Assembly (NCBI GenBank): GCA_051294375.1
Contig: CM119264.1
Coordinates: 2,435,631-2,499,630 of the forward strand
From: Paraspadella gotoi
Lineage: Eukaryota > Animalia > Chaetognatha
DNA: 64,000 nucleotides
Direction: 5' to 3'
Under the pieces are notes generated by a model, which made no database searches, was not told the origin of the DNA, and saw only the letters and a list, made by a program, of their open reading frames with translations. This document shows, piece by piece, positions 22,201 through 60,800 of this stretch. The first letter of the stretch is position 1. The number at the start of each line of letters is the position of its first letter. Both the position numbers and the translations under genes were made by a program.

Positions 22201-25200
22201 AATTGGATGGAACAAGGAAAAAATAGTAAAATCATTCAAACAAAACTATTCGTCATCAACAATAATTTCCTCTCAAATTGAATACAGGTGAAGACTTAGG
22301 GATAATTTATTTCAAGGTTTATTAAAAACGTACATACAAGTATTTTTTAAAATCATAAATAGGGCACAATTTATGGACAACCTGGATCAAGTTATGTGCT
22401 TTGTTAACAACCCTATATGGAATAGAACTTCGCCTCGACTCAATTGTTCTATTGGTGCATTATCCATAAAATTTAAACCAAAACTTATGTGCAGTGGAAC
22501 GCAAACATTTAAACTGGTATCATATAAATGATAAAAAAATAACAGCTGGGCATAATTAAATTTTTCAATTGATATGTGGTAACAGGGAATGTATCAAGTC
22601 TCGTGTGATTGTATTTCAAACCCAACGGTGGCTCCTAAACAGCTTCATTGGTATATTTTGTTCGGCCAAAAACAACTTGAAATAAACAAAATTGAAAACG
22701 TAACAAGAATGGACAGCAAAATACCCCACGGGTGAATTTAAAACTACTAAATCTTAAAAATTAATCATTTACATGGCTTTAAAAATCATATAAATTCTTC
22801 CCAATACAGTTTTCGATCAAGAATCGAGATACCGTCTTGCTTGGTAGAAGGTCATGGAAGAACTGTGGAAATATTCGTAAAAGTTTTACAAGGGGAAGAA
22901 GAAATTTGGAAATCAATAAAACTGATAGGCAACACAACCCAAACAACCCTGTAAGTAGTTTAAAAATTAAGATTTAGTCACTAATTTCTTCATATACATT
23001 ATACATAAATATATACATTTACACTTTATCTACTACATTTAATTATTAACTTACTATATTAATACAGTTTGATAACAGCCTTGGCTGCCACAACTGTCAC
23101 CATCCTCATATTATCGTCAATCGCATGCATTTTCTATCGATTCCACTATAATACCATAAGCAACTATAGACACGGGGAAAGCATTTCATCTTCAAACGTC
23201 GTTCAGGATGTCTACCACTTTGAAAGTAACACAGGCTGTCTACATTCAAAAACAGAAGAGCTCAATAATACAAAACCGACCTCAGGGAGGCGAGAAGTTT
23301 CCTTTAAAAACAATTTCTGAAAAAGACAATTGAATAAATAATTGTGATATTCGCCTAAAAAACTACTGGTTTCTGTGATAATTTCAGCTCAACTTAAGCT
23401 CATTTTAAATTTAGGTAAAATATAACAAAAACCCATAAAAATGCGTCGTCATAGAACGGAAAGAGAGCGAGCCGCACTCAATTTCTTAAAAAACATTTCC
23501 TTTGATGGCAATAGAAGCACAGACTTTCGTCAATTTAACTATTGCCAAGAAAAACGTTGCGATTGTCTGATATGTCAACACAGCTTAGTATCCAACGACA
23601 GATTTTATAACGACAGCCAAAAACCATCGTCGAAATATGAAATTGGCCTCAGTGACAAAACCAGCTCATCTACATCCGTTGAAACCATTCGAATAGATAC
23701 TTCAACGACGAATTACGAATTTAATTTAGAGAGAAGGTCAGTAATGAGATTAGTTATACAAATTTGATGGTCGTTGCTAGAATTAACTAACAAATATTTT
23801 TTCTTTGAAAAAAAGACTGTCCAATATCAAATCATTCAGATCAGACTCGGAGGAAAAAGAAAAACCGTCACAGAGGAACGTCTACTTCACGCCGTCTAGT
23901 GTGCTTACCAGCCAAGGGGTCAACAAGCGAATAATTTTCGTAGATGGTAAGATCAAGGAACATTTCCTTAATTAATTAACTTCGAGGGAAAAAGATATAA
24001 TACCGATCATCGCAGGACGACATCGAACGCCCATATCAGTCACGTCGGTTCTCCCTTGCCAAGAAATCCGGGCGACTAACCGAAAATCATCAGGGGACGA
24101 GTTGACCTCTGCCAAAAGTCCGCAACAGGGACGAAAAAAGGAAGTCACCGATCGAGAAGACGAGGACTCGATCCGAGATCAATCGTCCAACAGAAAACCA
24201 AAGCTGACGCTCGCGATAACGACGCCGTTGCGGGCGAAGACTTCAGGAGCGGCGGCCTCGACAACAAGCGCCGCGGTCAAAAAGACTGCGGCTCCGAAGC
24301 GCTCGAAAGCGATCGAACCGAAGCGGCGGGCGGTGCCGCTGATCAAAAGCCTGCTGCGCTCGCGCGGTCGCGGTGAGGCTTCGAGCGAAGTGTCTTTTCG
24401 AACTCTACTGGGAACGACGTCGACGTCGTCGGCCGCGACGACGGATAAATCAAAAACGGGATCCGAAAACGGCGCGACTGTTGGGGTCGAAGACGGAAGG
24501 AAAGACTCGGGAAGACCAGAGAGGCCCGTCGCCGATGAGTCGGAAAACAACGATCAACAACCAGAAGATCAAATCGACATCGGGATAGAAATTAATACCG
24601 GTAAGGAAATAAATATCTCAAGACTTAACTAAACCTGTCCGGCGCCTCGATTCAACGCCTTCGTTCGACAGATCTGAAAGAGAACCAAGCTCCCTACGAC
24701 CCTTGGACCCTCGACGATCCAGAATTGACGACGGGAAAATACAAGACGCTCATGACGCTGCCATCTTACGTCACATCCGTTCTTCACTACGCGAGCAGAG
24801 CCGATCTCAAGAGAGAATTGAACGATCAGTTTAAAAGAAGGTGATTTTGCTAATTAAATGATTACTTTTTTAAGCATTAAAGTTAAATCAACCTCAAGGT
24901 TTCCGGACATTGAGTTAACCCTCTCGAAACTGCGCAGCTTGAAACGAGAGATGAACCAAATCGGTGTCCGCTGCGATTTGGAAACAGCGACCGTCTCCGC
25001 GGCCTTTGTTTACTTTGAGAAACTCGTTCTTAAGAGATTCATCAACAAAAAAAATCGAAAGATCGTCGCGGGAAACTGCATCATCGTCGCGGCTAAATTG
25101 GACGACGTCAAAGGTTTAGGGTTGGGTGTTGTTGTTGTTGTTGTTTGAGGCACCAGCGGGTTTCGATTTAGTCTTACACTCATCTCAATGGCTGAGCAGT

Positions 25201-28200
25201 GAGCACGGAGCAGGCAAAATCAGTTCGTCACAACCGTGCGTCCCGGGTTCAACCCCTGGGTATACCCGTTCAGGCGAAAAAGTAAGGGGACAGGTTTAGA
25301 CATGCCAGTGACAGGAGCCGGTCCCTGAGGGTCCACGGCCCCTGCGAAAATTGGGGAGGTAATAATTCTAGAACATTTTTTATTTCAAAAACTTAAAAAG
25401 GCTAAGTCAGCGCGGCGAATGGGACACTCCTACCCCCCTAATTTTTTGTTTTTTTAAATTCAGGCGCCGAAATGGAGATTCTCATTTCCGACATAGAAGA
25501 GTCCTTGAGAATCGCGAAAAGAGATGTTCTCAAAATGGAAATCTTCGTTCTCGTCGCTCTAGAATTTTCTTTGAAGCTTCAAAGACACGAAGTCTTTCCG
25601 CATTATCAGCGATTAAAAACCGATTGTTATTAAAATTTGTTCGTTTTTTTCGTTTTTAACTTTTGGACAAATTACTTCCACATCATCGGACTTACCCGCG
25701 TTGCGGTTGTCGTCGCCGGCGGACAAAACGCGCTTCTTCGGTGGAACGGGTCGATGCGGAGATGGCGTCAGAGTCGGCAGTCTTATTAAATTAAAATAAA
25801 AGAATCACCATTAAGAATGTATTAAAAAGAGAAAGAACGCCAAAGGTCGAAGCGGTTAGATATTAAAGCTGGTTGGCAACGAACCTATTGGGGACGGACT
25901 TCCCTTCCCAGGCTCGATCGGGGCCGACGACTTCCAGAGTGCGAGAGAGATCAGAGGAATTGGGCGTCGGGACTGGTTGGTGCCGGGGTTTCTTTGGATG
26001 GTGACCTGAATGACGATACACAAATGGAATTAGGTCTTTCAAATCTCACATTTTTAGCGAGAAAGAGCGAGACTCACCTTCGCGCTTCCACTGCTCCTCG
26101 TCTGAGGTGGTGGACGCGTCGGAGACAATGGCGAGCTTCTTGGCGCTGGCGTGAAGACTTTCCGAGTCTGGTCAATGGAAAAAAAGATAATTAACGGTTT
26201 CATCGTGGCAACGACTGAATCATGGACAGAATCATGAAAAGGGTATCGGACAGAGTCATATTAATTTGTCGTCAAAAAAATGTTTTCAAGAATAAGTTTT
26301 TTTAAACAACAAAATATATTAATTTTTTTTTATCAAAGGATCTTAATCGACAAAATACGTTGTCAAGGACAAAGTCTCATAAGGGATAAGCCATATGGTC
26401 TAGCATCAAGCATAAGGACAAGGTTTAATGTCAAAGATAATCTTCTCCCTCACACCTTTACCGCTCATCGCCTGTCGCGCAGAAGGGACTGGGGCTTTCG
26501 ACGATGACACGGTCGACGGATGGGCGGGCTTTCCGTTGCGGCCTCGAGGTTTGAGCGCGGGGACAGGAGGTGCGACCGATGAAGGCGCCGACGGGACGGA
26601 CGCCGGCGCCGTGGAGAGACGCGATTGGCGGACGAGGAGATGAGAGACGACGGGACGGGGCGTGGAATTGGAGGAGGCGGCAGAGGGCGCGTGAGAGAAC
26701 TTGTCGAGGACGTCGTCACCCGTGCTCGGCGTCTCTCCGACCAGGTTTTCCCGAGAAGACGAGGACGACGACGGAGACGCCGTCGCGTCCAAGAGTTCGC
26801 CTACCGTTGTAGGGTGGGGGGGGGAGGGGGAAGATGGAGAGGGGGGAATGTTGAATAATACGTTATTTTCTTCATTGTTATTGTAGTGGACGACGCTCAT
26901 TGCACACAAGTCTCAGAAACTGCGGATCTGACTTTAGCGCCGCCAAACATTTTGAGGCAACTCATCGCCAACACGAAACCAATTAGGACGGGAGAAACTT
27001 CGTATTGCCTTCCGTTGTAATATCTGACGAGTCTCGGATAAGTGGAGACTCGGAGAGGTAAATTCACACTTCTTTTCGTTACATTGCCATCCCATACGTC
27101 ACACTCAAACGCCGTCACACCGCCCCCCTTCCACCCACCGGACGAAGAGGCCCGGATTTCCTTGAGTTTGAGGGCGCTGTGATGAACGAGGAGCGGCGTC
27201 GGAGTAAAAGCCAACGACGCCGGTTTGGTGTCACACGGCGCGGGTCCGTCGACGACGCCGCTGTCCGAAACGGAGCCGGCGTCGACGGCGTCGCGGTCAC
27301 GTCCGGCGTGAGACGCGGCGTCGCGAGTCAGACTGACCAACATGGTTGGATCTGCGGGGAGATAAAAGAGGGGAAAAAAACATTAACATAGCTGATGGGA
27401 TAATGAATTTTTAATCTAGTTTTACTGTTTCAAACCCATTCAATCAAACTTTTAGGGTCAAAAGTTTTAGTCAGCGATGGGATAAGTGCCTCACCGTTTG
27501 TACTAATTATCTATATTCACTATTCATCGATCTAATCATCTATCGTTTTACCACCAAGAGAGATCAAACTCCCGTCGTGAAATCAAAATAAGATCCAACT
27601 CTCACCCGCGTTATGACTAGTGACTCGCAAGACCCCAGAGAAATTGGGCTCCTGCTTCCGCTCTCTGACTTGAGCGGATTTGACGTAGAGAGACTTGGAT
27701 GCCTCGAGCAACTCCACTGCCGACTTCCCGCCCGTCGACGTTCGATTCCCGGGTTTCCCGCCGAAGATGCTCAATGAAAAACCGCCCGTCGAGGCTGAGA
27801 AGATAAGAGTGGGGAGGAGACGTGAGGAAAGGTGAGAAGTGAGACGGAAGTGAAAGGACTGAAATGCGAACAGTGCGGTTGAAAAGAAGTCGTCTAAAGT
27901 GGAAGATAAAACTATATTTATTTTGGGTTAAATGTTTTAATATTCATCCATAACTATTTTGTTTAGCAGTGTAAATAATTCATAAAAAAAAGTTTATTTT
28001 ACATGTTTCTAAAAGAATTTAAAAAAAAAACCAAACATTCTTCTGTATTTATCCAAAAATAGTTTTTAATCGGGCCTCAAACGACGAATCGCATCGGATC
28101 CCTTAATATCTAACCTCCTTCGGATCTCGAGTCCAAGACGCGGCTGGAAGATTTGCTCCTCAATCTCGCTCCCGAGGATTTTTGAGCTGCGGTAGTCCTT

Positions 28201-31497: not shown

Positions 31498-33504
31498 TAG
31501 AAATTAGAATAGGAGATGGCGCCGCGGATTGGGGAATGGAAGGACTTTAAGGGATTTTCCTTTCGCGGACCGAGTGGGGGGGGGGAAAGGATGACCTTTT
31601 TGTTTCCCCGATCTGTCGTGATAATTGAGCCGATCGGGAGGACGAATGTCTCTCTTGTCCCGCAAAATAATCGAGAAAGAAGAATCTATTGGAAAATGGT
31701 GTTTTGAGGGGGATCAACTAGCAGTGGACAAGACATTTCCGGGCCATCTAGTGGCCAGAATTTGAACGATCACCCTTGGCGCGAGAAGGAGACTTTTCCG
31801 TTTCAGAAGACGAACTCCTTTTGCGTTTTCCCATTTTTTTTTTTTTTTTTTTTTTGAGTCGCGCGAATGAAGAGCGAGATTTTTTTTTGTCGTTACGAAA
31901 ATTTCGAGGGAGTGAAGAAAATGAAGAAACTTGGGGATAGAAGATAATTCTTATCTGAGATTTTATCTGAAGGTTATATTGCGAATTTCTACCCGTTTTA
32001 GCTCGACAACGCGTGTAAAATTAAAAAGGAATATGTGAACTTAGCTAGGATTTTATGGATAATTACCAATTAGTTGAAATTACTTGAATGAAATTACTTG
32101 ATTGGAACGTCACCAGCTGTGGATCTTTTATATAAGGTAAACGTGTGTCATCCCATTAAACACTTGAAGGCTTAAAGAGGGAGGACCTCTGCCGAGAAAA
32201 AGTTTGGGTAACGTCTTTTGTTCATAGAAAGAATATTTCCCCTCGCTACTCTTAATAGTACTTTAAAAAATGTTTCACAATAGCTAAATTCAATAGACAA
32301 ACCTTTCGAAATAAATTGCATGTTGCTTAGATGTACCTATAAATTTATCCAATGGCGAACACAAATACCTAAAATTATAATAAAGAAGTAGTTGCGCCGG
32401 CTTTCCCTGATTGCTTAGTTGCTTACCCCTTGTCTTAAGATAAACAACTCGGGTCTCGGGGGGGGGGGAAGGGTTCCTTCCCCAAATATTCGACCATCGC
32501 CGAAATATGCTTTTTCAAGCCTTGGTATTTTTCTGTTTAATTTGGTCGTTAAGTGGAGTAATTTCTATTCGTATATATATTGGTTGTATGGATTGTAGTA
32601 TGAAAGTTGTAAAATTACTTGTTTCACTATTTTTCCTTTTTTTTTTAGATTTAAAGTTGGCGCGATTATGTCCTTTATTTTTATTTCTTTTTTTACTGTT
32701 GCGGAATGCAATATGAATTTTTTAATTTCTAATTAATTCTAATTTCTTTTTAATTTTTAATTTCTCTAGCTCCTGACTTTATACAGGCTGTACGTAGTAC
32801 TATCAATCTTGATATCAAATAAAATACTCATAATATTAACATCCTTCCACAGTCCAAGCGAAGCTTCAAGTTAATTTACCATCTAATTTTTCCAGTTATT
32901 TTAATCAAGTTTTCATCATCTTCTAACTTGACTAATTGAAGAAGTGGCTAAATGATTTATGACGTGACGATTCCGACGTTTACTTTATCACCTCGGAAAA
33001 AATAAAGTTCTCTTTTCCTCCTTTTCATTTTGTTAGTCTTTTTTTTTTAACGATGACGTTTACGAAACTCGAGGAAATTAAAATCCTCGTTACTTTTATA
33101 ACGAGACAAAGTCCATCATTTCCCCGGATAGACTCTTCCCCCTTTTAATCTGCCCACTCGATGCGGTTGGGCCGTCGGCTGTCGGCAGGAGGTTCGTAAC
33201 CCTTAAAAGCTCTCACAATCACACAGAATCATCACGCACGCAAACTCAGGAGTTGAGAAGAGAGCAGCTAATCGTTCGACCCAGTCTTAGCGACTCATGG
33301 GTCGAGAATAAATCATCCGCCGAATTGCGTCCGGGTCGAAGGGGGTTTCGTGTAAATCCTCAAACGTCAAATAGTTTTAATGAAAAACGTAACGTAACCT
33401 ACTTTCACTTCCTCTCTCTCCCTCTCTGCCCACTCAAATGTCAAACTCCTTCCCCAAACTTTTTCATCTTCGATCACATTTCTTTTTCCCGGTGACGAAT
33501 GACG

Positions 33505-33514
33505 NNNNNNNNNN
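33505..33514. other. Assembly gap (10 N) flanked by a duplicated ~48 bp sequence
   Basis: aaactttttcatcttcga(t/c)cacat(t/g)tctttttcccggtgacgaatgacg occurs on both sides of the gap. Confidence 0.95.
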
Positions 33515-33741
33515 AAACTTTTTCATCTTCGACCACATGTCTTTTTCCCGGTGACGAATGACGACTTCAGCAACACGAAGATCGTTTAGACTTTCTTCAG
33601 TTCGACCCAAGTCTCTCAATCGACACCATCTTCGATTTGGAAAAAAAATAAAAATAAAATGAACAAATAAAACAAAGTCCCGATTAACATTTACAGATCA
33701 GGCGAACCCGAACGACGACCGAATTGATCCAAAACCCAAAC

Positions 33742-48337: not shown

Positions 48338-51300
48338 TCACGTGTCGACGGAGACGTGATTGATGCCTTCGGGCGTGGCCACGTGCGTTCCGTTTCCCGT
48401 CGGCGTCGCCGATCCGGACGAGATGTTTCCTCCGCCGCCGCCTGCTCCAACGAAGAGCGGCGAGGGCGTGCTGCTGCTGCTGCCGCCGTCTGCGGAGGGG
48501 GATTCGACTCGAAATATAGGAGGCTCGCAGCGACGCAGCGCGCGGCCGCGAGACTCACCCGCGTTCCTGCTGCCGGATTTCGAAGGGTGATGGCCGCTTC
48601 CCGCCGCGGCGTGCGTCAACATGTGGGAGGTGAGGTACTTGGCCAAAGAGAAACTCTTTCCGCAATCCATACAAGTGTGAACCTACGAAGAGAAGGAAGA
48701 AATTTTAATTAATACTTTGCGGCGGTATATTCACACCGCCTCACGTCCTCCATCGTTCAGCCAATACCATTGGTTCAGAGGGGGGAACACACCATCCCAA
48801 GCGTTGTGTTCCGTCTACAGTCCAAACGACTTCCCTCTGCGTTGGCAAAGCGATACCGTCCTAGGGTAACCGCGCCAGTGACTGGAGGCGTCACTAAGGG
48901 TCGGAAGCCCCCAAAGCCAACATTGAGATGCTCCATCCCAATGGGCATCACAGGCAACCCGGCTGTTGCCATAAATCGTGGGCCCAACTATCAAACACGC
49001 AACCTTCTCAAGGTACGCTACGACAAACGCCTATGCCCTACTGATTTCCTAACACCTTCCCTCTGCGTTGGCAAAGCGAGACCGTCCTAGGGTAACTGCG
49101 CCAGTGACTGGAGGCGTCACTGAGGGTCGGAAGCCCACAAAAAGCCAACAGTGAGATGCCCCATCCCAATGGGCATCACAGGCAACCCGGCTGTTGCCAT
49201 AACTTCTAATTGCTTAATACCTACACTTTAAAAACACGACCTGTTGCGCATGCGCAGAATTCGAGACGTGATGCGCGGCTCCATGCGGCGCGTGCGGAGT
49301 TCCCCCGGAAGACGACGAGGCCGAGGGTGAAGGGATCCCGCCGTGAATCACCTGAGAGGGGAGCGAAAAAGTTCAAGATCTTGCCGTATTCACGATATCA
49401 ATTTATACTTTATTTGGCAAACGTGCGTAAATATAGGGGTTAAGAGTTATCGACCTAGTAGTACCTCATATTTTTGCAGTTGTTGCAAGTGCTGTTGCTG
49501 CACGGCTGCTGCGACTACGGCGGCGGCGGTTTTGGAGTGACTGACGGTGGAATTAGAGGTGGAGGCGTTGTTTAGCTGGTGGGCGGCGGGGGAGGCGCTT
49601 CCCGAGATGATGGCGTAATGGGAGGAAGAAGAAGAGGACGGGGGATGAAGCACGGATCGGTGCCGCAGCAAATCCGTCCGAGAGGCAAACGCGATGTTAC
49701 ACTCTTCGCAAATGTTTTTCTCCGCTGATAAAAAGATAAAGAGTTGAAAAATTGAGACAATTCTCTTGATAGGGAAGATATTTTAGGGACGGGTTTTGGT
49801 TGATGATACGTCACCAATCGCCAAGAATATCACTTCAACAACTGTTTTCGAAGTAATATTACCAATCCGAAAATCATCACTAATTCCTAACCCCCACTCC
49901 ACCCTGTGATCCTATTTAATCACCTTTGACGACGGTCCTCTCTATCGGACCGGCGGCGTTGAGCACCAAATTAGCGCCGCTCGTCGAGGGCGCCCCGATA
50001 GCGGCGTTCTGCTGCGCGTGGGTCGCCGCGTGCTTCTTCAGCGTCTCTTTGTGGGCGAAGGCGCGCCCGCACTCTTGGCACACGTGACTTCTTTCTCCGC
50101 TGTGGGTCAGCATGTGACGAGTGAGGTCTCCCTTTTGCGAGAAGCCCTGATATTAAGTGGATAGGAAGCACTTGATTCAGGGCTAGTTGTCTGGAAGAAA
50201 CTTTCGTGAAGATTCATCATCGGACTTTTATTCATTTGAATAAATTGACAAATAAAACATTTCACTACGTGTGTATTGATTTATTATTCATTGCCTTTCC
50301 TTTTCGGCTATCATGAGTTATTAATGATTATAGGAGAGGTGTTGGGTTACTGATCGGTTTTGTGGTTCTTGATCATTGTGTTTCTCTTCTGATCTATAAC
50401 AGTGTAGAATCCATGGTGCACTGTCAATGCACGGCCGCCCGTGATCAATCATTCACTGGTTGGAGCGAGACTTTCTGCCACGCCTTGAATCTCGGTGACA
50501 CTCCTTTGGTAACCCACACTCATCATTACCCGTTAGGGGGTACGCAGGATTCGCCCCTTAACCTAGTGTTTTATGATTTTTTGGCTAATGCGAGGGCCTA
50601 ACAGGGATCTAAAACTCAGGATGCGAAGAGAAAAAAATAATAAACATAAATAAAAAATAAGGCCATCTTGATAAAACCGTAATTCCACTTGAACATTTGC
50701 GCCGTTTTTTTAAAAAGCTTTTTGAGATTTAAAGATAATCCTTTTAAAATTTAATGAGCCTAAGTACAAATGGCATGACCTTACCACCTGTTTGGTTGAC
50801 ATCGTTCGAAAGGAAGAACAACCCAAAAAAAAAAAAAAAAAAAATCGTACGATGAAAAGAGGATATAAAAACTGAAGTTTGGCAGTAATAAAGCATTTTG
50901 AAAGAAAACCCGCTCAAAACAAATAATGTTAACTCAAAATCTGATCGTATTTTTTTGCTGCGTCGTCGCTTTAGAAAGAAGCGTTGATGCCTTAAAAATC
51001 CACGACAATGTCAGCGAGACAAAACCACAAAAACGGGGATATCTTGAGGTGACTTGACAGAAATATTGGCAAAGTCCAAGCTTTTTTTGAATAATATCGT
51101 TCCAGTTGTTTCATTGCGCATTGCCGACCTTAAAATGATCTTTTTTATTCCAAGTTCATATTTCCTGGAACGAAATGGTGCGGACCGGGTGACGTCGCCA
51201 AAAGCTACGACGACTTGGGCGAACTCGAGGAGATCGACAAGTGCTGCCGTCAACACGACAATTGCCCCAAAGACATCGAGGCTTTCGAATTAAAGTATCA

Positions 51301-53998: not shown

Positions 53999-56900
53999 AG
54001 GGCTTGTGAGAAGGCGGGAGATTGATCATTCAAAAGGGGAAAAATTACACCACAATCAAAATTTCTATTCTTGCTGTCTAATTGTTCCTAAAGCTCATCG
54101 ATTGTCTTTGTGAATATACTAAGTTTTAAACATAATTATTGTCCCGTTATAAATTATAAACATATTTTTCAGCAGTTGAAAATCATTTACATAATGATGT
54201 ACATAATCTACAACAAAATATTTTGGCCTCCGACCTGGAAGGCTCGTCAGGTTCCCGCCCACGATGGGATGAATCTGTGTGACTAGTCCCTGCAGCTGTT
54301 GTCCGTTGGCGCCGGGAGAGGCTTGCACGGAAATCGTCTGCGGCTGCTGCTGCTGCTGCGGGTGCGAGGCGCCGCCGCCCGGAAGGTAATTCTGCAGCAA
54401 CGCCTGCTGAATTCGCTCGACGCTTTCCTGCAGCAAACCCGTCGTCTCCATTCGGCCTTCGATCTGTTGCTTCAACCGTCGAAAAAGAAGATAACAAATA
54501 AACGACAAACATTTTTTAAAAGCTCAAAAATAAAATTGACTACACCCACCAAACTGTTGGGAATGCTTTGGTGATTCTCTTCGGACGTTTGATGCTCCGG
54601 CTGTTGATGCTGTTGTTGCTGCAAGTGTTGCAACTGTTGCGCTTGAACGGATATGGCGGTGGAGCGTTTCAAGGCGCGGCGCGGCCGGTTCTCCGTCGCC
54701 GCCGCCGCCGCCGCCGCCGCCGAGCCCGAGACGACCGTCGGCGATCGGGAATTCGTCATTGACTCGGGAAGATGAGTCGCTCGATCGAGAATCTATCAAC
54801 GTAAATATAAAACAAATTCATAAACTATGAAATTATAACGGAATATATAACTCAAATGACATTTAATTTTTTAACCTGCATCGACGGCTGGGGCGACGAA
54901 GCGTTGGAACTCGCCCTCCCTGAGTGGTGGGGGTGGTGATGATGATGATGGTGGTGACTGTTGACTTGCGGGGGTGACTGAACTACGAGCGGTAACACTC
55001 CGCCTCCCGAGGCGGAGGAGGGCGAAGGCCCGCCGACAGAGTGTGCGGGGGTGTTGTACTGGGCGGTAGAAGAGTGCGATCCCCCTGTGGCGTTGCCCGA
55101 GGAGTGACTCCCGTCCATGTGAATGCCGTGTAGACCGTGATGACCGTGGTAATGACTGAAGAGAGAAATTATTATAAAATGAAGATTGATTCATTCACCA
55201 AATTAGTACCCCGTCTAGACGGCGTCACTGACCTCGGAGGAGTCGACGCCGCCGGCGCGTGACTCGGCGTCAAATCTCCGGCGCGAATCACGTCTTCCGG
55301 ATGAAGTACTTGATTCCTGGCGCCGGGATTTCCCGAATCCGACTTGTGCGTGGAGGCGTGGGAGGGAGTAGGGGTAGAGACTGGGAGCGGCGCCAGAGCC
55401 AGCACCTCCGAAGGTCTGAGGTGGTGGTCGCCGTGGTGACTCGCCTGACGGATTCATATTTTGTGAAGATTAAATTATAACATTTTGGAAGACTAAGTTT
55501 CGCCCCAGATTTCAAGCGTTCCGTGCATCGTTGTGAATGGCCGCTTGAACCGCTTGGTCATTTCTCCGCTTGGGTTTTTTAAAGGCCTCTCTTAGCGATA
55601 ATCGGATTTTTATTTAAAACTTGTCATATGTCAATTGTGGCGAATCATAACTTCGCCTCCCGTATAGCTTGGTGAAACTCAGCTCGTCCCATTGGCTTGG
55701 ACAGCCGAGTACTCGTTCACCAACCGTGAGTTCCTGGTTCAAACCCCTCACGGTCACGCTGGTTAAAGTGTGATGGTGTCGGCATAAACACGCCAGTGAC
55801 ATGGGGTGGTCACTGCAGGTCCAAAGCCTTGAGCGCCAGCTGTCGGGAGATGCCTCACACCCCGGGCTTCACACATGTCTCCCCATTGCCATACAGTAAC
55901 CTTTAATATTAACTTCTCTCTTTTTCCTTGATCAGGTCTTCGATACGTAGCATTGCTAGGGAGGCCTTCAAAGCACACGCGTTAATGAGTTGGTAATTGC
56001 TTTCGTGACTGATTCGTGACGATAGAGCCAAACTTCGTCAATGGGGTGGGTCAGAAGTTTGATTTGGGAACCTTTCCAAATGAAACTTCATACATTTCTG
56101 AGAAAACTTTCAATGGAGCAAAATTTTCTAAAATGGCAAGAAGCATTAGTAATTAATTTTTTAATATTTATTTATAGATAGGAAATGTCAAAAATTTTTT
56201 TTTGAATTTTTATTTTTAAAAGCAGATTCAAATAGCTTATGAAAAGTTATCTACACAAAGTATAATTCTTTTTTCAATATTTTGATGATAAGTGGGTTTA
56301 AATTGAGAAAAACCTTAAAAAATCATCATCATCATCATCATCCGATGATTTTAGCAGTTTTTACTAATTTTTAGTAATAAAACATCAAAATTTTAAAAAG
56401 TTGTAATTATATTTTTTGCTTAACTTTTTAAGCTCTATCAGAATCAATTAAAAAACTTAAAATATCCAAAAAAAATTTTTGACATTATATAGCAATAAAA
56501 TAATATTAATTAGCAAATTACTCATGGTTCGGAACATTTTTGTAAAAAAATATTTTAACACAATAATTATACCAATAATGGATTAGTTTAATGCTGTTCC
56601 CATTAAAATTTGAATTTGGTCGGCTACCTCTAGTGACGATGACCCACAGATGTCGTGCCGCACTTACCACCGAAGCGGCCCGGTCGGCCGTGACCAAGTC
56701 GCGATGGAAATCGTGGACGGGAGAGAAAAGATGCGCCGCCGACTGAGACACCGTCCGCGCGTCGAGGCTGCGGATCTCCATTCGCTTTACGCGGGCGTCA
56801 AGTTCTGGAGGGAGGAGTGGGAGGTGAAGTGAATGAGAAGGGAAGAAAATGGAGGGAGAAAAAAGTGAGGAAAGGATAAAAAGAAGAATATAAGAAGAAT

Positions 56901-57249: not shown

Positions 57250-57867
57250 GCGACGCAACGCCCCGCTCGATTCGAAACGCGCGCAGTTTGGCTTTAGAGC
57301 GGGTCAGAGGGTGGCCATGACGACGGTCCACACTTTTGGCCAAGGGACGACACTCTCGACTCGAGGACGAGCCCCTTTTTCCTTTGCTAGCGACTATCCT
57401 TCATCGTGGGAGAACGGGAGGAGTTTTTTCGTCACTAAGTTTCTTAATTTCGAGGCAGAAGGAGTCGACTTCATTTTCACATTCGAAAGAATAAAAACGA
57501 CGCGTATTTTGGTAGAGAAATTCGGGGCTTCTTCCTTCGTCTATTTCAACAGAGTCGTCGTCGGAGGCAGCCGATTTACTGATGCCATTTGGTCGGGAGG
57601 TTGATAGACGCGCCATCGTGCGAAGACGGGGAAAGACTGACCAATCAGAAGGCAGAATTTCAACGCGAGGACCTCAATGGCGCCATAAAAATTAGGAACG
57701 TCAAAACGTTCGATTCTCAATTCGAGGGGAAAAAAAGCGAGGGATTTTCAAATTTACTGACAACGACACTAAATTCGTGATTACTAATTGTAGAGATTAG
57801 TATTGAAGGGACAAAAGAAATATATCATCTAATATCGTGAAGAGAGTTTGGACCGAAATGAGGAAAT

Positions 57868-60800
57868 TCACTTTTTCTGTGATTTGTTCAACATCAGCTT
57901 TGATTTCTCCATGAACATGACCGAATTCCTCTTAAGTTCGGCGGCGTCGGAATTAACGGTGTCCAACCTGTTTTCCCTGACCTCGAGACCGGCTCTGGCC
58001 TGCGCCGCTTTGGCTGCCGTGCCGCTCGATCTGGCCGCGGCGCCGCTCGATCTGGCCGCGGCGCCGGTGGATTGCGGCGCTCCTCCGTTGGATTGCGCCG
58101 CGTTGCTCTTTTGGTTCATATCGTTCGGCTTGTTCTTCATGTAGTGGCTCGAGAATTCGAGTTCTTCCAATTGACGATTTTGTTCTCTTTGGTCTTTTGC
58201 CCTAAAAAATAAAACTCATTTTCTTTTTAAATACTAAATTCGATCAAAATCGGACAGCTTGGCTTTATATCTTTTAATTGTACTTTTTTTACTATTACAA
58301 CTATTATATTACATGATTACTATTATACTATTCAATTTTACTATCCCATAAAATCGCCTTCAATAATTAGCGGAAGCCGATCAAATTCAAATTTTAATGG
58401 GAACAGTATTAAACTAATCCATTATTGGTATTAATTATTGTGTTAAAATATTTTTTTGCAAAAATATTCCGAACCATGAGTAATTCGCTAATTAAAATTA
58501 TTGTATTGCTATATAATGTCAAAAATTTTTTTTGGATATTTTAAGTTTTTTTAATTTATTCTGATAAAGCTCAAAAAGTTAAGCAAAAAATGTAATTACA
58601 ACTTTTTGAAATTTTGACGTTTTATTACTGAAAATTAATAAAAACTGTTAAAATCATCAGATGATGACAATTTTTTAAAGGTTTTTCTCAATTTTAACCC
58701 ACTTATCAAAATATTGAAAAAAGAATTCTATTTTGTGTAGACTACTTTTCATAAGCTATCTGAATCTGCTTTTAAAAAGAAAATTTTTTTTGACATTTCT
58801 TATCTATAAATAGATATTAAAAAAATAATAACTAGTGCTTCTAGCAATTTTAAAAATTTTTGGTCCATTGAAATTTTTCACAGAAATGTATGAAGTTTCA
58901 TTTGGGAAGGTTCCCAAATCAAATTTCTGACCCACCCCATTGACAAAGATTGGCCCTAATAAGATTAATACAATCTCACACACTTTGTTTATCTAATGTA
59001 CGTATTGCAACTAAATTACTTTGAACGTTATTCTACAAAATAATTATTACATTGATTGCACTAATTACACACAACGACCGACAGAGAGTAATGAGTCGAC
59101 AGCCAAGATATCTCGACTTCTCAAGGCACTTTTCTCAACATCCAACCTCAAGAAACAATCAAACCAGTGGCTGCGCCAATAAATGTAAATCACTTTCAAG
59201 GGCTTAAACTGAACTGTTACTGGGGCACTAATATCATTTTATAAATTAAAACAATATTATTATGAAGTATAATTAGGAGTAGCCTAACTCAGTAAGGTGG
59301 GTAAGAAATTTGAATGAAGCACCTGCTCAAACAAAAATTTAAACATTTTTTAAAAAAATTGAATAGACAAAAAATTTTAATATTATTCTATACCCCACAT
59401 ATTAATTTTTTAATATTTATTTATAAATAGGAACGGTTAAAATTTTTTTAAAGATTTTTTTATTTTTAAGATAGGATTCATGTAGCTTGCAAAAAGTTGT
59501 GTGCACAAAGTATAATTCTTTTTTCGATATTTTGATCATAAGTGGGTGAAAAATGTGAAAAACTATTTATAATCATCATCATCATCATCTTTTGATAATT
59601 TTATTACTTTTTCTTAATTTTCACTAAGAAAAAATAAGAATCTTTGAAAGTTGTAGTTATATTTTTTATTTAACTTTTTATGCTCTATCAGAATCCATCA
59701 AAAAAGATAAGACTGATTAAATTTTTTTTTATTATTATATAGTATTATTGTAATTTTGATAGCAACAATAAAAGCATTAAAACCGAACTTTTCTAGTATA
59801 ATATATATGATTAAAATGCTTTTATAAAAACAGAATAAGAAATAGAATAAAATAAAATAAATAAGAAAAAAATACTTAATATTACAAAAATAATTTTTAA
59901 AAGATTTAAGATAATATAAATTTACAAATATAATTGCTATTTTGTTAAAGAGCAAGTGCAAGTGAAGATCTAGTGGGTGCAGCTAAAATTTATTTTAAAT
60001 GTTTGTCTTACAAAAAGCTTTTTTTAAAGCCTTCTAGTAGAATATGGTGAAAACACCAAAGAATTTTAATAAGATTATTCTTTTGTTTAAGAAAAAATAT
60101 TAAAACCTCTGGTAGATGTACTTAAATTAAATTTTATTGCTATTTTGTTTTTAAAAATACTTCTTCATTTAAACAGCCATCTGGTTTATTAAACCAAAAA
60201 CATATAAACATTTTCTATTTTGTATAAAGCAATGTAAGTAAAGATCTAGTGGGTGCAGACAGAAGAGCAAATTTCTATAGAACTTAAAGGGAAAATGCTC
60301 ATAGTAGAGAAAGTAAGAAACAAATCCTAGTAAGAGAAAAAAAGTTACAATAATAATTGAATAATTAAATATTTGTTATCACCTTTGTCATCGTGTCTTT
60401 ATTACCTTTGTCATTTAATAAAACTATTGTCAACCTAATATTGCCTTTACTTATTAATCACCCTAAACGATATTAACCAGGATTCACTAAACTAGCTTAA
60501 CCTGGTGAGGCTACACAGCACGATTTTCAGACAAGTTGGGTCCAGACTCGACATCGTTTTCTCGATACCTGACATCTTGAGTCTCTGTCTTTTCCCCTTT
60601 CGCTTTACTTTTTCTTTTTGAATTAAAGTCGACAGGTCGGCTACCCTCGCGTTCATTAATATTTCCCGCGTCATCTTTTGCCAAATTTTTGTTCGTTTCC
60701 AGTTTTCTGCGCCATCAAGGGGTCAAGAATAGGAATATGGATTTTTAAAAACATACATTATACTTAGTAACAGCAGAGATTAACAAAATAGCTTCACTAA

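Follow-up and report, generated by a model that had tools for sequence, protein, structure and literature searches.

A putative type-P5 twister ribozyme in the terminal units of a dispersed LTR-like non-coding element of Paraspadella gotoi

The stretch of Paraspadella gotoi DNA analysed here, which we call the window, is 64,000 nucleotides long and carries genes with short introns for a glutamate receptor, an SLC6 protein, Noggin, a C2H2 zinc-finger protein and a cyclin-box protein. Thirty-eight open reading frames of the window were scanned against Pfam, one round of the domain scan including 30 of the 48 frames of at least 130 aa, and no reverse transcriptase, integrase or endonuclease domain was found in them. 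The element that is the subject of this study (element A; Table 1) lies in an intron of the zinc-finger gene and is antisense to it, host transcription running on the opposite strand. Splicing of this intron restores a zinc finger with Pfam support. A contig of run X9, whose RNA nature is a guess, skips the intron, with 265 letters between its aligned pieces as compared to 266 from three predicted exons. Since the repeat is intronic, a coding role for it was rejected.

Table 1. Positions of element A, its relatives B and C and the host intron, in window coordinates
Feature	Position	Strand	Remarks
Host intron	48683..49239	-	GT..AG; C2H2 zinc-finger gene; length 557 nt, or 69 nt once the element is removed
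Left target-site duplication	48714..48717	.	ACTT; 4/4, chance 0.006 at local composition
Element A, LTR-like unit 1	48718..48973	+	256 bp, TG..TA; from contig ends and homology to B
Element A, promoter region	48771..48815	+	worn, tRNA-type; has a box A-like word (48771) and lacks an intact box B
Element A, twister copy 1	48841..48921	+	putative type P5; predicted cut 48867/48868
Element A, internal part	48974..49046	+	primer-site-like word from 48976, worn here
Element A, second LTR-like unit	49047..49201	+	without first 103 bases; no polypurine tract upstream
Element A, twister copy 2	49067..49149	+	putative type P5; predicted cut 49093/49094; all conserved letters, P2 and P4 weakened
Right target-site duplication	49202..49205	.	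ACTT
Element B, solo LTR-like	55636..55893	+	258 bp, TG..TA; flanks CAAT/CAGT
Element B, promoter words	55665, 55693; 55736	+	box A-like (first two); box B (third)
Element B, twister	55758-55840	+	intact, putative type P5; predicted cut 55785/55786
Element C, degenerate	25150..25365	+	box A 25189, box B 25246; ends undefined; broken twister core

Several other features of the window were recorded. An AT-rich, internally palindromic repeat of about 600 bp occurs in three copies (56023-56632, 58368-58958 and 59296-59705) that are 73-89% alike; two of these face each other about 1.7 kb apart, and the repeat is likely a MITE family. The only N run (33505-33514) is flanked by a 49-base direct repeat (33456-33563), a likely assembly overlap. 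A short minus-strand open reading frame at 57848-58170 contains 21-base tandem repeats, has a coiled-coil-like end and gave no Pfam match.

Element A is an insertion of 484 bp (48718-49201) that begins with TG and ends with TA, not CA, an ending for which precedents exist. It consists of two repeats, each with a twister motif, around a short non-coding part, the right repeat lacking 103 bases; the shared portions (48821-48974 and 49047-49202) form a direct repeat with 92.9% identity over 156 columns. Two full LTRs and a polypurine tract were looked for at this locus and are absent. When contigs were aligned on 48717-49202, two DNA runs gave 8293 and 6433 of them, as against single contigs over the flanks; the DNA runs X1 and X4 belong to one study and may be the source of the window. 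The alignments stop sharply at 48717/48721, 48973/48974 and 49201/49202, with unrelated AT-rich sequence beyond. Contigs of run X1 with such an unrelated flank numbered 42 and 58 on the left (about a hundred), and 42, 78 and 65 on the right, and the flank consensus across contigs was ATAT or ATAC on the left and CTAT or ATAT on the right. Summed contig depth over the element is some thousands of times the depth of the flanks, a ratio that is not a copy number. Run X10 yielded one matching contig, of depth 6, which may be carry-over. Element A is one decayed copy of a small element dispersed in this animal genome.

Two relatives lie in the same window. Element B is 58% identical to A, is homologous to it along the whole unit and shows a duplication at three of four letters (chance probability 0.07), so that the evidence for a target duplication comes from two loci, 4/4 in A and 3/4 in B. 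Element C has the same orientation as the plus-strand cyclin-box gene, lying in an intron of it (donor at 25114), and UAA, GA and the P4 loop are broken in its twister core; the cores of the antisense element A are near-intact. This difference, one case on each side, fits selection against cutting of the host pre-mRNA. Within the family at large, the sequence at 49012-49048, in the linker between the repeats, corresponds to a 37-base unit (range 31-38) that is in tandem in other copies with different spacers. Other contigs place diverged heads before the same repeat in place of 48718-48820, and these heads keep a hairpin with altered arms at about 48785-48812, a pattern that points to several subfamilies. 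A DNA transposon (MITE) reading of the element was dropped, as its ends are only loosely inverted and it leaves the conserved ribozyme motif and the primer-site-like word unexplained.

The head of the unit carries signs of a tRNA-type promoter. The worn promoter region of A aligns with the region of boxes A and B in element B, and elements B and C each hold one box B word, GGTTCRANNC, of which the plus strand of the window has no other. Both boxes lie upstream of the twister in B and C, and A keeps box A only. Neither Rfam nor ARAGORN reported a tRNA in the heads of A, B and C, and a T-run terminator (T4), searched for in A and B, is absent from them. Behind unit 1, a TGG follows after two bases in nearly all of the aligned contig depth. 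By eye, the first ten letters of this putative primer site agree at nine positions with the tRNA-Trp rows in Fig. S2 of PMC10886601.

The preliminary description of this locus held that each of the two repeats matches the twister layout, leaving the type unstated. Copy 2 does so in every block (P2' GCGA, GA-CC-G, UAA, GC, a P3 of 7 bp and the loop UC-GG-AAGC), and copy 1 is broken at two places, having TA where the class has GA (T for the catalytic G at 48854) and a C-A mismatch closing P3 (48896). At both of these positions 98% of the aligned contig depth of run X1 differs from the window. The order of the blocks is that of type P5: a P5 arm, P2', GA-NN-G, an 8-nt P1 segment, UAA, P2, GC, P3, P4 with the loop UC-NN-AAGC and the closing P5 arm, the arms being GTTGGC and GCCAAC. 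This geometry agrees with a published table (PMC8501958 Table 1) and was also set beside the layout in the available part of a ribozyme review (PMC5408937). The conserved letters UAA, GC, UC-NN-AAGC and GA-NN-G are all present in copy 2 and in B, and copy 1 lacks the G of GA. Both copies of A have C-A as the opening pair of P2, and P4 of copy 2 has a G-A mismatch. Minority contig variants touch stems at places that correspond to 49099 and 49135 in the numbering of copy 2, leaving a G-U in both cases.

The covariance models of Rfam recovered little of this. Across the 64 kb there was no match at the gathering score, and at element A the one weak match was of twister-P1 on copy 2 (21.6 bits, E 0.066, cut-off 67.2). 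Twister scores in the window ranged over 17-22 bits against that cut-off, twister-P5 was absent among the matches listed, and no hammerhead match was obtained. The Rfam matches Ms_AS-8, snoU54, NEAT1_1, NPPA-AS1_1 and psbNH (E 0.6-7.6) were dismissed as chance. A descriptor of the full P5 order had no occurrence in 300 shuffled windows and returned, blind, a third core at 55768-55830, which lies in element B; as the descriptor was drafted after viewing the locus, only this third core is unprompted. A model built from the three cores found a fourth, broken copy in element C (25266-25354; E 3e-06, 32.6 bits). A looser pattern gave 11 matches in prokaryotes, all of them apparently due to chance: one has the T1 pairing, and the best E is 0.61 with the model built on the three cores of this window. 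Twister pattern scans of metagenome contigs and viral contigs gave no match.

Comparison of A with B supplied covariation, in a set of three sequences from two lineages. Both partners are changed in five of 22 pairs, and the two variable pairs of the pseudoknot T1 are among these five; 90.9% of the cells are paired as compared to 29-44% in slid controls. Stems P1, P2 and P4 and two pseudoknots are supported in this way across the two lineages. Judged from these sequences, the motif in A and B is very probably a type-P5 twister, and its cleavage is predicted.

The copy in the window differs from the majority contig depth of run X1 at no fewer than 19 of its 484 places, in the head, both repeats and the linker, and by this comparison appears to be decaying; it is likely dead. 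The predicted U^A sites, 48867/68 and 49093/94, are indeed 226 nt apart, as had been described. This spacing would likely result from a local deletion, in which the right unit lost its first 103 bases and the internal part its end. An RNA cut at both sites of A would be without the left end of the element, so that this form would be unable to perpetuate itself.

It had also been proposed that the palindromic P1 of one copy pairs with that of the other, building one ribozyme across the repeats with the GA of copy 2. This holds: the duplex is present, with eight pairs including two G-U, and the cross-repeat core is sound and gives the best of three constrained folds of the two-copy stretch (-92.9 kcal/mol as against -85.8 and -81.7, for secondary structure only). 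The P1 8-mer at 48859-48866 on the plus strand recurs with identical letters at 49085-49092 and is self-complementary. On its own it can form a hairpin of only 2 bp, and with a second copy a duplex of eight pairs, in element A (-11.0 kcal/mol) as in element B (-9.5 kcal/mol). The 8-mers of A and B differ at four of eight letters, yet each is fully self-complementary; that of element C self-pairs at six of eight positions. Retention of a self-complementary P1 in both lineages suggests that cutting may occur in pairs.

Our preferred explanation, which we hold to be somewhat more probable than an even chance, is that A is a decayed and partly deleted copy of a dispersed family of LTR-type non-coding retroelements (TRIM, Helenus-like), with a P5 twister in a terminal unit of about 257 bp, which would multiply by being cut, circularised and reverse-transcribed by means of a helper that is likely of Gypsy type. 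In the left unit, RNA polymerase III would start ahead of the ribozyme and, meeting no T-run, read through into the right unit. The twister motifs in both terminal units would then cut the transcript to give the unit RNA. The two ribozymes may pair through their P1 8-mers, and such pairing would time the cuts, so that cutting becomes efficient only once the transcript is complete; the monomer circle, left with a P1 of 2 bp, would cut itself poorly and be spared. In vitro, according to the part of PMC5408937 available to us, twisters can cleave without P1, so paired cutting need not be required, and this is the weakest step of the mechanism. Because cuts in both units would leave a unit RNA without a terminal repeat, circularisation would be needed, an argument made for plant retrozymes (PMC4918200). 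A host ligase could close the unit RNA, a tRNA would prime at the site behind the left unit, the Gypsy-type helper would reverse-transcribe it, and, as in the proposal for the LTR retrozymes of plants, the circle would stand in for strand transfer.

The same LTR element with an active twister might instead use linear RNA and ordinary strand transfer, the ribozyme replacing the pol III terminator as a former of the 3' end. That A and B have no T4 run would agree with this role, as would the RNA of the validated relative Cassandra, described in PMC10886601 as linear with short terminal repeats, and the circle is only predicted here. However, the left ribozyme follows the promoter and would be transcribed too, the cross-repeat fold, in which the left ribozyme is cut, is the most stable of the constrained folds, and cutting both would remove the very terminal repeat needed for strand transfer (PMC4918200). 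We consider the linear route unlikely.

The tRNA-like heads of B and C bring to mind a tRNA-derived SINE, mobilised by a LINE and carrying the twister in its body, with locus A as a dimer. Many monomer insertions among the contigs, and the twisters already described from RTE LINEs, at their 5' ends (PMC8501958, PMC7761336), are in line with such an origin. Against this, the unit begins with a sharp TG 53 bases before box A and shows no A-rich or simple-repeat tail, and it has a 4-bp duplication and a primer-site-like word. In addition, daughter copies would all lose the promoter to an internal cut, and the twisters of RTE elements are of type P1, truncated at the cut. We rate a SINE as slightly less likely again than linear RNA.

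In the preliminary description the unit between the two cuts, 226 nt long, was itself the propagating circle, hairpin-rich and arranged in tandem, a twister version of the non-LTR retrozymes of animals. The spacing does fall within the 170-400 nt given for circles of those retrozymes (PMC7229834), the linker sequence is abundant among matching contigs, and the weak palindromic helix resembles the axolotl dimers. What this model does not accommodate is the head of 103 bp before the first repeat, which is unrelated to the linker and lies outside the 226-nt unit, yet within the target duplication that surrounds head and both repeats; a circle of 226 nt would lack the left end of the element, and the locus does not consist of one unit repeated head to tail with LTR signs absent. 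Nor does the monomer stand out in structure. As a circle it is 54% paired (z -0.74, 200 shuffles), as compared to more than 70% reported for such RNAs. Its release would need a second cut by a self-folded copy 2, in competition with the cross-repeat fold. Linker and repeat share a word of two letters at their joint, and other contigs instead return to the linker unit after 49039 or 49048. The twister identity and the retrozyme-like nature of the element are thus retained from that description, and the tandem of 226-nt monomers, which we regard as improbable, is not.

That the element moves without a ribozyme, the twister being an inactive passenger acquired in the distant past, is in our view the least probable of these alternatives, since the low Rfam scores, the C-A in P2 of family A and the wear at all three loci of the window are opposed by the retention of every conserved letter in lineages only 58% identical, by two-sided changes of pseudoknot and stem pairs between those lineages, and by the broken core of C, the single intronic copy in sense orientation.

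Among known systems, the LTR retrozymes of plants (Cervera, Urbina, de la Pena 2016, PMC4918200) come closest. As far as the available text of that paper goes, they too are non-coding, with a 4-bp duplication and solo units; their ribozyme in each terminal repeat and their primer site behind the left repeat would have counterparts in the two twister motifs and the primer-site-like word of A, and a circle route with a Gypsy helper was proposed for them as it is here. They differ in having a type III hammerhead and a plant host in place of a type-P5 twister and an animal host. The unit of about 257 bp with tRNA-type promoter boxes sets the present family apart as well, and circles and complete copies were not seen here. 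The family would work like an LTR retrozyme, yet is not a member as the group is defined, having no type III hammerhead.

Helenus/TRIMp3 (Kojima 2024, PMC10886601) shares other features. As described in the available sections of that paper, it has a short LTR with tRNA-type boxes A and B, as in elements B and C, and in animals a 4-bp duplication, likewise as here. Its Gypsy-like primer site, TGG, follows the LTR at a distance of a few bases, as the primer-site-like word of A follows unit 1; its range of LTR lengths includes the present unit, and some of its LTRs end in TA. The animal LTRs of Helenus in those sections end soon after box B and are mostly T-rich there, whereas here about 150 bases with the twister follow, without a T-run. 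Those sections of the paper mention no ribozyme, and none of 16 twister loop words was found in the parts of its sequence file that were covered, where line breaks can hide a word.

The non-LTR retrozymes of animals (PMC7229834; preprint 10.64898/2026.07.22.740005, both as available in part) are likewise small ribozyme repeats in animal genomes, and those of amphibians have a weak palindromic helix that does better as a dimer, like P1 here. Unlike the present element, they carry type I hammerheads in tandem arrays, without LTRs, primer site or purine tract. A twister within an animal retroelement is also found in the LINE Perere-3 (RTE) of Schistosoma (PMC8501958, available part). That twister is P1-type, stands at the extreme 5' end with its P1 completed by the target site and is followed by a coding LINE, unlike here. 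Close tandem twisters were reported from fungal totiviruses (PMC13725137, in the part available).

In the literature that was searched, parts of which were available as excerpts, retrozymes are defined by hammerheads, with an LTR form in plants and a non-LTR form in animals, and the only role described for a genomic twister is that at a LINE's 5' end. Neither an LTR with a twister nor a retrozyme based on one appeared in that literature; the supplements of the original twister paper (Roth 2014) and of the Penelope dimer paper (Lunse 2017) may list eukaryotic P5 twisters of this kind. It would be tempting to propose, though we place this somewhat below an even chance, that the family is a new animal retrozyme: a pol III-transcribed miniature LTR element in which the twisters of the two LTRs, paired through a palindromic P1, cut together to give a small circle for a Gypsy-type reverse transcriptase to copy, and which occupies thousands of sites in several old lineages.

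Since Rfam misses this twister, other families of the kind may have escaped notice. If an abundant animal element does carry a twister in its LTR, the circle route would be shown to be independent of the class of ribozyme. A natural type-P5 twister of eukaryotes would thereby gain a job, and TRIMp3 elements and retrozymes, so far described apart, would be joined.
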